Assembly (NCBI GenBank): GCA_905178155.1
Contig: CAJINV010000095.1
Location: 1 to 8,578, forward strand
Direction of reading: 5' to 3'
Length of the DNA stretch: 8,578 nucleotides
Source of the DNA: Amoebophrya sp. A120
Taxonomy: Eukaryota; Protista; Dinoflagellata
Both the position numbers and the translations under genes were made by a program. A model generated the notes under the pieces. The model saw nothing but the letters and a program-made list of their open reading frames with translations, did no database searches and was not told the DNA's origin. Numbering within the stretch: the stretch's first letter is position 1; each line of letters starts with the position of its first letter. Of the stretch, positions 2,831 to 7,376 are shown one piece after another.

Positions 2831-5800
2831 ATGCGGAAGACCGCTTTGATCACCGTATGAGAGTGCAAAACTCCCCCTCGTTCTCATTTCTCATGCAAAA
2901 CCCCAAATTCAAGTGCTTCCCTTGTATCACTGTTATGCATGACATTCCGGAAGCCCAATCAGTACTACATTACGCGCATGAACTTTCCATGCAAAAGCTG
3001 CATCTCTGGCAGCGCTTGTGTTGCTGTTCAGGCAACACAAATGAGGGGGAGGGGGAGTTGTGCACTGTCATACACCGGTATCACCGGCCAGGACGGCTCC
3101 TACCTCGCGGAGTTTCTCCTATGCAAGAAAAAAACTGTGTAAGTGTAAATTTGTGTTGCAGAGGATGCAAGACACCTACACTTGTCATGCTGGACATGCA
3201 TTAGAGGTTCCGTTCTTCTTCTAAGTGCTCTCACGTACTAGCTACGCATGCGAGGTTTTCTCTGTCATGCAGAGCAAATTTGTCATGCTGTTGCTTGAAG
3301 AAAGTTACACTTACACACTTTTTTCCCTGGATATCTCTTGGAAAAGGGCTACAAGGTGCACGGCATCATCCGACGAAGCAGTTCGTTCAACACCGGGCGC
3401 ATCGAGCACATCTTCAACGAGATCACACTCCACTATGGCGATTTGGTGGACACCAGTAATTTGTGCTCCATTCATATCCAAGAAAAATGAAAAAGTGTAT
3501 ACATAGTGCAGGTGAGTCCAGCATGACAAATCTTGCTCCTGCATCACACACGAAGCCTGTCATGGAGAGCTAGTACTACGTAAAAGCACATAGCTATACG
3601 GTAATAGGATGGTATGGCTGGCTAGCATGACAAGTGTGACTGCGTGATTGCAGGTTTTGCATTACAGACTTACACTTACATACACACCCCTTATTATTCT
3701 TGCATAATTCTGGAGAAGGTCCGGCCTGACGAGGTGTACAATCTGGGGGCATATGCATTGCAAACATCCCTGGAACTGGATCGTGTCTGAAATAAAAGTG
3801 GAATGTTTGTCATGCACATTTTGCATGACCCACACTGTCTGTGATGTGTGACGTGGCATAAAAGATTGATTTTCTGAGGGCTTCTTGATCCCTGTTCCGC
3901 ATGAGAAACAAATACTTACTCACCTCGTCTCCGTGAAGCAAATCCTGGAGTCCTCTTGGTCCTCTTGCTGGTCATCATGCAATACAGATTCTTTTACTTT
4001 CCAGAAGCAGCATCACAAGTTCTAGGGATGTTTGCGGGGCATAGGGCGCAGTCCCACGTGAAGGTCTCGTTCGAGGAACCGGAGTACATACGCATTGCAA
4101 ATATGTCCCCGTCTGAATCTGTGATGCAATATTTGAAGGGTAACCAGATCTGTATTGCATGGACAGGAGTGAACGGTTTTTTTGTCATGCTGTGAAACTC
4201 AGTTTGTCATGCAATACACGATAGCACGATTCGCAGTAGTAAGTACCACACGAAAATAGAATTTGTGATGCGTTGATGCCGTCCCAAACCTTGCTCTGTC
4301 ATGCAAAACGTGGCACCAACGGAATGCGCTGCACCTACTTTCCAGACCTAGACATATTTGCACCTGATAGTAGACCGCGCAGTGCGACGCACTGGGCACG
4401 ATGCGCATGCTAGAGGCTTTGCGGACGTGCCGACTGGAAAAGACGACCAGGTTCTACCAAGCCAGCACGAGCGAGCTCTACGGTAAGTCAAAGTTGAGTT
4501 AAGTTCGAAAGGGGATCATAGTAGGTGCAGGTGGTGCCTCTACGACTTGTAGTATTGAGAAGGCTCCTTTTGATGTTCTAGTGCTATGCATTGCGCTTGA
4601 TGTACTTACTTACTTCATGTAGCACCGTACTACGTCCTCTTCTGCTTGGAGGCACTATTATAATCGAAATGATCGATAAAAATCTGATTTCAAATCCCCC
4701 ACATCACCTCAGGTAAAGTGCAGGAAATTCCCCAGAAGGAGACGACGCCATTTTATCCCCGTTCCCCGTACGCCGTGGCAAAAATATACGGTTATTGGGC
4801 ATCAAATGTAAAAATGTCTGGGTCTGGAAGATTGCCAGGTTTGTCATGCACATTTTGCATAACTCCAGATGTCTGTGATGCATGCCCTGGCATGACAGAT
4901 TTTGCGAGGGGTTCCTCATGCCTACACCGCATGACAAATGCTCTTTCCGTGTAGCAAAACTTGGACTCTCTCTGCTGCTCATGCAATACAGATTTTTTTA
5001 GGATCCAAAATCAGCATGACAAGTTGGATTCTTCCAGACCCAGACATTTTTACAATTGATATTGGGCCGTGGTGAACTACCGAGAGGCGTACGACATGTA
5101 TGCGGTAAATTATCCTGATTAAAAATGTTCCCACACCAGAGTTATCATGCAAATCTGCATGCCAAAAAAGTTTACTCATGCGGAGCCCCATGACAAGCAT
5201 TTATTAGTCGCGTTTCGTAATTTGTCTTGCTCCCATCAGCATGCTGCGCTAGATCTGTGATGCTGCTGCACTAACTAAACAGGACTGTACACTACGAGGA
5301 CATCAAACTTGTCATGCGAAACAACCAGAGCTGGTTGATTTGTCTAGCAGATTTCCCATCGTGACTCTGGTCGTGTGGGGACGTTTTTACTCAGGATATA
5401 GATGGGATTTTGTTCAACCACGAATCGCCGCGCCGCGGGGGCACTTTTGTGACGAAGAAGGTATATAGGATGTGTGAAGGAAACTGAAACAGTTTCCTTT
5501 GTTTTGAATCGGTATAATAAGTACTCTTCCCTCCTGGTCGCTGTAGTACCTATGTAGTATAGTGTACATCTCTAAACAAGCTCCACATCGAACGACAGCC
5601 CGCATATGCTGTTGTTCATCAGCTTTTTTCATCTTAACACACGACCTTCTGAAGAAATCTTTTTTCGTACCAGCACACGGATCAAAGGGAAGTGAGTGAA
5701 CAAATTCGCCGCTGGCTCGTACGTAGTTGTGCTGCTTTGTAGCATCGTTTCATCACATGCTCTTAAAGCTGATAGTACTCAAAATAAAAAAAGGTGACCA

Positions 5801-7376: not shown

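Follow-up and report, generated by a model that had tools for sequence, protein, structure and literature searches.

In the marine parasite Amoebophrya sp. A120, the introner elements that interrupt a gene for GDP-mannose 4,6-dehydratase are probably removed in a single register relative to the 5-bp duplication (TSD) that flanks them: the exon would keep bases 1-4 of the left TSD copy and base 5 of the right copy, and the intron would have the form N-TAT...ATA-NNNN. Five introns point to this register at the protein level, and the rule is generalised by inference to the rest. The window, a stretch of 8,578 nucleotides, holds the coding region at 2831..7364 on the + strand, with the ATG at 2831. 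Its 15 exons encode 320 aa and are split by 12 introner elements and two GT-AG introns; the C-terminus (~63 residues) lies beyond the window. One exon is 100% identical to the A120 gene model GSA120T00026211001.

The 12 elements are A120 introner elements, which Farhat et al. (2021, PMC7789003) have already published, so that the elements themselves are known. As described there, 29,850 elements of ~240 nt with non-canonical ends carry inverted repeats of 8-20 nt, which start with TAT followed by seven variable bases and three or more A, and direct repeats of 3-5 nt (5 bp in the legend of Fig. S19). In the window, the coding elements measure 180-292 bp; the left end is TAT in 10 of 12 (TAC and CAT once each), the right end is ATA in all 12, and AAA occupies positions 11-13 of the terminal inverted repeat (TIR) in 10 of 12 left arms. 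A is found at these positions in 95-97% of arms among 266 elements from a related assembly (see below). A 5-bp TSD flanks 12 of 12 coding elements, and for all 12 pairs to match at 4/5 positions or better by chance has a probability of ~1e-20. Of 320 elements called without regard to the TSD, 261 have copies that agree at 4/5 positions or more when the repeat is taken as 5 bp long; the other lengths from 2 to 8 show no comparable peak. The arms are shared between elements of the window, and copies are ~67-83% identical among the longest matches in related loci. The original prediction had read the elements as MITE-type insertions; the TIRs and the fixed TSD bear this out, as do the lack of coding capacity and a size of 149-323 bp across window elements, but their identity as the published introners had been missed. 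PMC7789003 reports no cognate transposase in A120, PMC12130899 describes A120 TIR introners with integrase-related homology, and the TIR pattern was absent from the viral and prokaryotic collections searched. Inside most elements, in the window and in the related loci, the motif GCATBAC and its reverse also recur. Towards both ends of an element the motif is directed inward, the two orientations numbering 140 and 9 in the first fifth and 5 and 124 in the last fifth, an arrangement resembling subterminal transposase-binding repeats.

Intron coordinates are given at k=4, where k is the count of left-copy TSD bases retained in the exon; all introns lie on the + strand. The two TSD copies are identical in 5 of 12 cases, which are uninformative: introns 1 (2855..3076; TIR 2856-3072, CACCG/CACCG), 6 (4799..5065; TIR 4800-5061, TTGGG/TTGGG; the sole CAT start, giving a GC donor at k=4), 9 (6209..6393; TIR 6210-6389, ATCGC/ATCGC), 10 (6446..6694; TIR 6447-6690, GCATG/GCATG) and 11 (6733..7013; TIR 6734-7009, GTGCA/GTGCA). 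The other 7 pairs differ at one base, at position 2 twice, positions 3 and 4 once each and position 5 three times. Two of the position-5 differences are synonymous, in introns 2 (3119..3337; TIR 3120-3333, TCTCC/TCTCT; Leu) and 4 (3751..4047; TIR 3752-4043, GGGCA/GGGCG; Ala), as had been predicted. The canonical GT-AG introns lie at 4483..4712 (GTAAGT...CAG), which is absent from GSA120T00026211001, and at 5461..5793 (GTATAT...AAG). Similar elements are found upstream of the ATG (2559..2812, GACAC/GACAC), probably in the 5' UTR as judged from its position, and nested in the sequence 3' of the last exon seen (7397..7545, AGAGG/AGAAG). A further element at 77-399, with the TSD GGACC/GGGTC mismatched at positions 3 and 4, apparently lies in the end of an upstream + strand ORF, although the codon model put it on the - strand. 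Depending on the register, the codon at its junction would encode Thr, Ile or Val, and the 25-aa exon at this element had no match in Pfam.

The remaining five differences alter the protein, and k=4 is the only value that satisfies all five. Residue columns were taken from 114 homologues, namely 120 matches minus the A120 model and five proteins longer than 450 aa. The protein calls for the left copy at position 2 in intron 8 (5878..6138; TIR 5879-6134, GGGCC/GAGCC), giving Gly rather than Ser (G in 98/99 homologues, S in none; k>=2), and in intron 12 (7071..7284; TIR 7072-7280, AAGTA/ACGTA), giving Lys rather than Thr (K 68/93, T 0; k>=2). The same holds at position 3 in intron 7 (5110..5402; TIR 5111-5398, TAAAT/TAGAT), where Asn is expected rather than Asp (N 83/101, D 0; k>=3), and at position 4 in intron 5 (4088..4373; TIR 4089-4369, with the TAC start; GTACA/GTAGA), where the left copy gives Tyr, present in 113/113 ungapped homologues, and k<4 creates a TAG stop at 4089 (k>=4). 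Intron 3 (3474..3710; TIR 3475-3706, ATTCA/ATTCT) behaves in the opposite way: the right copy at position 5 gives Leu rather than Gln (k<=4), and the homologues have L, M, I or V in 114 cases and Q in none. With k=5 the product would read IQEKV, with Gln at 3475, and k=4 leaves no stop. The published A120 model reads ILEKV (Leu at 3475) and EPEYT (Tyr at 4089), and the first 160 aa of the k=4 product are identical to it. As the A120 pipeline was transcript-guided and also took protein alignments (PMC7789003, section 25), this identity supports k=4 without proving it. The original prediction had quoted six of the seven TSD mismatches, all of them correctly placed, and had called for the left copy at positions 2, 3 and 4 and for ILEKV at position 5; both choices hold against the homologues. 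The AAGTA/ACGTA pair had gone unquoted, though it lay within the stretch it covered.

An informative intron constrains k from a single side: four introns set lower bounds, of 2, 2, 3 and 4, and the only upper bound, of 4, comes from intron 3. A sixth site, at position 4 in locus L009 of the related assembly, favours the left copy on the basis of a paralogous repeat. Over the six sites, the likelihood is 1.0 for k=4, 0.5 for k of 4 or 5, 0.30-0.44 for k of 3-5 and 0.02 for a uniform k of 0-5. On these sequence comparisons a random junction position is disfavoured and a one-base wobble is not, a junction at 4 or 5 being only twofold less likely. The predicted junction after base 4 thus stands as the only single register that fits the five informative introns; its fixity does not follow from these bounds. 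Homologues sought for further position-5 sites at L075 and L015 were not found, solved-structure alignments for L045 and L053 ended short of the junction residue, and a codon-usage likelihood comparing left and right copies showed no change of sign by position. Non-synonymous TSD mismatches were seen at L045:2771 (positions 2 and 4) and L045:4298 (position 1), in a gene for a multifunctional beta-oxidation enzyme. An apparent counter-example, a left-copy stop at position 3 in L007, was on the wrong strand and dropped out on re-orientation, the opposite strand being open for ~3.7 kb. At L038, a dubious element with a 3/5 TSD, a right-copy stop at position 2 is consistent with retention of the left copy there.

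A junction that moves within the TSD, for instance falling after base 4 or base 5, would be invisible where the copies are identical, and selection would have purged the mismatches that could not be tolerated. The one-sided bounds leave room for such movement. PMC7789003 calls the splice border 'variable' relative to the hairpin (Fig. 3 legend) and 'unknown', gives no rule, and puts 1-5 nt between the inverted repeats and the splice sites (legend of Fig. S23); Euglena, for its part, tolerates one additional nucleotide on the acceptor side (PMC12501133). The published spread is, however, expected from aligner sliding: a BLAT-like slider, which does not use BLAT's own scoring code, gave k=-3 to 6 on 210 identical TSDs whatever the truth. 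The invariance of one particular base, documented below, also fits a fixed 5' site rather than a moving one, and we consider a junction that is not fixed unlikely. For the same reason, a potential independent proof of k=4 was discarded. The nine leading A120 motifs in Table S4 of PMC7789003 all have T at +2, but the pipeline was BLAT-based, and the slider, given the same 210 TSDs and no value of k, ranks 7 of the 9 motifs among its first 14.

The k=4 frame runs for 320 aa without a stop, across 12 insertions, and its product is 95% identical (304/320) to the AT5 orthologue and 91% identical (291/320) to the A25 orthologue. On this evidence the dehydratase gene is under selection, and the original view that it is not a MITE-riddled pseudogene is supported. 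That the gene is a pseudogene, that the elements leave at the DNA level, or that RNA editing takes the place of splicing is very improbable. In favour of such a scheme, the A120 model is partial: it runs 17 codons into the introner at 4799-5065 (element 4800) and then ends, its partial protein is on record twice (CAD7973683.1 and CAD7975714.1), and the C-terminus falls outside the window. The double record suggests a duplicated locus or an assembly copy. Against it, beyond the open frame, five of the elements do not appear in the transcript-guided model, whose pipeline used protein alignments too; TSD mismatches show a silent excess in the wider sample (31/70 synonymous versus 30% expected, p=0.012); and PMC7789003 puts the share of intron boundaries with possible editing at only 2-4%. 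Downstream, in 7365-8578, the gene stops after WKTEIG, at a GTACTG start, and a tandem array with a unit of 203-204 bp occupies 7595-8578, 3' of the last exon seen. Elsewhere in the window a 63-nt stretch occurs in two copies (414-476 and 1380-1442, 87%) with ~900 bp of partly GC-rich sequence between them.

The wider sample was obtained by scanning with the commonest TIR motif, which yielded 165 loci (430 kb once merged) from one assembly in a metagenome collection. This assembly is related to A120 and may not be A120, and it carries the same element families. Among 351 elements called, the TSD copies were identical in 271, differed at one base in 60 and at two in 20, so that 80/351 (~23%) are mismatched. 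The caller found no elements in shuffles of 40 sequences that hold 196 real calls, and it missed one element of the window (3475). An ORF and codon model oriented and framed 266 of the 351 elements, the other 85 being left out; neighbouring oriented elements agreed in strand in 157/159 pairs. In these 266 elements, mismatches were spread evenly over TSD positions 1-5 (16, 13, 12, 16 and 13) and were 2.3 times more frequent at third codon positions (39/473) than elsewhere (31/857, p=5e-4). Combined with the synonymous excess, this indicates that the kept copy is under selection at the protein level, yet drifts silently. The original idea of drift confined to the removed copy therefore applies to amino-acid changes and fails at silent sites. 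In 131/266 elements TSD base 1 is the third base of a codon, so that about half of the introns would be phase 0 at k=4. Phase bias was rejected as evidence on register, since k=4 and k=1 fit alike and target composition may cause it.

Placed at k=4, the ends of these introns lack most of the usual splice signals. The +1 base is G in 93, A in 75, T in 52 and C in 46 of the 266 elements; 20/266 end in AG where 24 are expected, and 8/266 are GT-AG. None of the 12 window elements is GT-AG (GT start in two, GC in one, AG end in one), and the AG end of intron 5 is probably due to chance. The +1 base and the last two bases of the intron are free, with no enrichment of G or AG. Neither an AG/G proto-splice preference nor a drift towards GT or AG was found in the elements examined, and no constant branch-point motif was evident before ATA. 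The base that is kept is T at +2, present in 11/12 window elements (the exception being the GC donor) and in 265/266 elements of the loci if k=4. This first T of the 5' arm was changed in one element, a doubtful call, against 9 elements with a change at the base that mirrors it on the 3' arm (p=0.02); at TSD matches of at least 4/5, the counts were 0/252 and 8/252 (p=0.008). TIR positions 2 and 3 showed no such asymmetry between the 5' and 3' arms in the 266 elements. The caller is strand-symmetric, so the asymmetry does not arise from detection bias. It comprises 8-10 events, which would fail correction over the 22 TIR positions examined, and a motif-anchored recount gave 0/145 versus 2/146. 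Six of the 9 changes on the 3' arm are A-to-G and preserve a U.G pair, so that pairing could also explain the asymmetry.

We somewhat favour a scheme in which A120 introners are cut after TSD base 4 by a relaxed spliceosome that takes the element's first T for the U(+2) of a GU donor. As observed, a TAT...ATA element enters an exon and duplicates 5 bp. The intron N-TAT...ATA-NNNN would then leave with exactly one TSD copy; because removal must be clean, the offsets of 1 and 4 must sum to 5, the length of the TSD. The intron would start N-U-A. Given the border rule, the odds for the splicing mechanism as a whole are about even: U6 snRNA would read U(+2) and thereby keep it invariant. In the P complex of yeast, A51 of U6 is the partner of U(+2), G(-1) pairs with G(+1), and the final AG is held by G(+1) and the branch adenosine (10.1101/212811). 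G(+1) and the terminal AG, which are docking partners of each other and of the branch adenosine in that spliceosome, would have been lost together in A120. Distance would fix the 3' site, at 4 nt beyond ATA, and the inverted repeats would probably keep the two ends close. The T at +2 and A at +3 found at k=4 are shared with the donors of the gene's two GT-AG introns, GTAAGT and GTATAT, and U2, U4, U5 and U6 snRNAs are present in A120 while U1 was not detected (PMC7789003, section 10). The sole window element without the first T (4799-5065) has G at +1, giving the GC donor, and is exactly the one that the A120 model runs into. As an anecdote this fits a retained intron; a break in the transcript contig would account for it equally.

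The same register of 1 and 4 could also be produced by a non-spliceosomal mechanism, as proposed for Euglena, in which the base-paired TIRs would be sensed as a hairpin structure, the RNA cleaved 1 nt beyond the stem on one side and 4 nt beyond it on the other, and the ends ligated. This was the picture of the original prediction, whose register agrees with ours; the hairpin as the thing being measured fares less well, and we regard it as unlikely, though slightly less so than a mobile junction. Predicted folds pair at least 7 of the first 13 TIR bases in 81% of 109 elements, and two elements fold better than their shuffles (z of -2.9 and -1.7). The dispensability of G(+1) and AG, the undetected U1 and the U.G-preserving changes at the mirror base would all suit such a ruler, and in Euglena fixed spacers of N3 and N5-6 have been tested (PMC12501133). 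Set against this, G.U wobbles between the arms are not in excess over A.C (110 versus 111; further in, 91 versus 84), folds are alike on the sense and antisense strands (p=0.11), and 44-64% of elements lack a pair at TIR positions 4, 5 and 7. In addition, three changes at the 3' end disrupt the outermost pair, no changes are seen at the 5' end, and the minimum-free-energy fold of intron 5 leaves the terminal triplets unpaired. No selection at the RNA level on stem pairing was seen. The spliceosomal reading of U(+2) remains our preferred one.

The A120 introns were compared with known systems. Relative to the introners described in PMC7789003, the organism, the inverted-repeat pattern and the direct repeats are the same, and the 1+4 register and the U(+2) asymmetry are added here. 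No register for A120 was found in the literature searched, which included text from PMC12130899, PMC9860276, PMC11453091, PMC12621601 and PMC11282704; the figures and supplements of PMC7789003 and PMC12130899 could show one. Nonconventional introns of Euglena share inverted repeats, the absence of GT-AG, an asymmetric fixed cut outside the repeat and a register derived from non-slidable introns. Their code, 5'-N3CDG...CH'GN5-6/R, has spacers that were tested genetically (PMC12501133) and does not fit the A120 ends (N-TAT, ATA-N4): the repeats are TAT/ATA here against CAG/CTG, the offsets 1 and 4 against 3 and 5-6, the lineages are unrelated, and the A120 rule derives from sequence alone. The TIR/TSD introners of Symbiodinium, Chrysochromulina, Florenciella and Micromonas (PMC9860276, PMC11282704) are likewise DNA-transposon-like, with splice sites in the element or from the TSD and one TSD copy removed. 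They have GY/AG-type sites, whereas the +1 and last two bases are unconstrained in A120, so that any target site seems usable. U2-type introns, as seen in the yeast P complex (10.1101/212811), have U at +2 followed by A at +3, as the A120 introners would in the proposed register; unlike them, the A120 introners show no G(+1), no terminal AG and no constant branch motif, and U1 was undetected. In A25, the nine leading motifs of Table S4 in PMC7789003 start with TT and the repeats with TTA. A25 may also have U at +2, with a different register, though aligner bias is possible.

More than 60% of introns in A120 and A25 are removed without GT-AG or a detectable U1, which PMC7789003 leaves as an open question. 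What is new here is a testable border rule and a candidate mechanism; the elements are known, and the method of non-slidable introns has already been used in Euglena. A known but poorly mapped class of introns thereby likely gains a simple splicing rule, one read from sequence comparison. A single register would reduce the reported variety of splice motifs to one rule, N-TAT...ATA-NNNN, would correct gene annotation, and would single out U(+2) and the 4-nt distance as things to mutate. With ~23% of TSDs mismatched, the 29,850 elements should offer thousands of direct tests in existing RNA-seq data. A bolder reading, less likely than not, is that A120 has a U1-less spliceosome that does without G(+1) and the 3' AG altogether, its only needs being a transposon-supplied U(+2) and a ruler of 4 nt measured from the 3' repeat. 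If this is true, it would account for ~30,000 introners and replace dozens of described splice motifs with one rule, which the TT-starting introns of A25 would follow at U(+2), and insertion at any target sequence would create an intron that is perfectly removable from birth.
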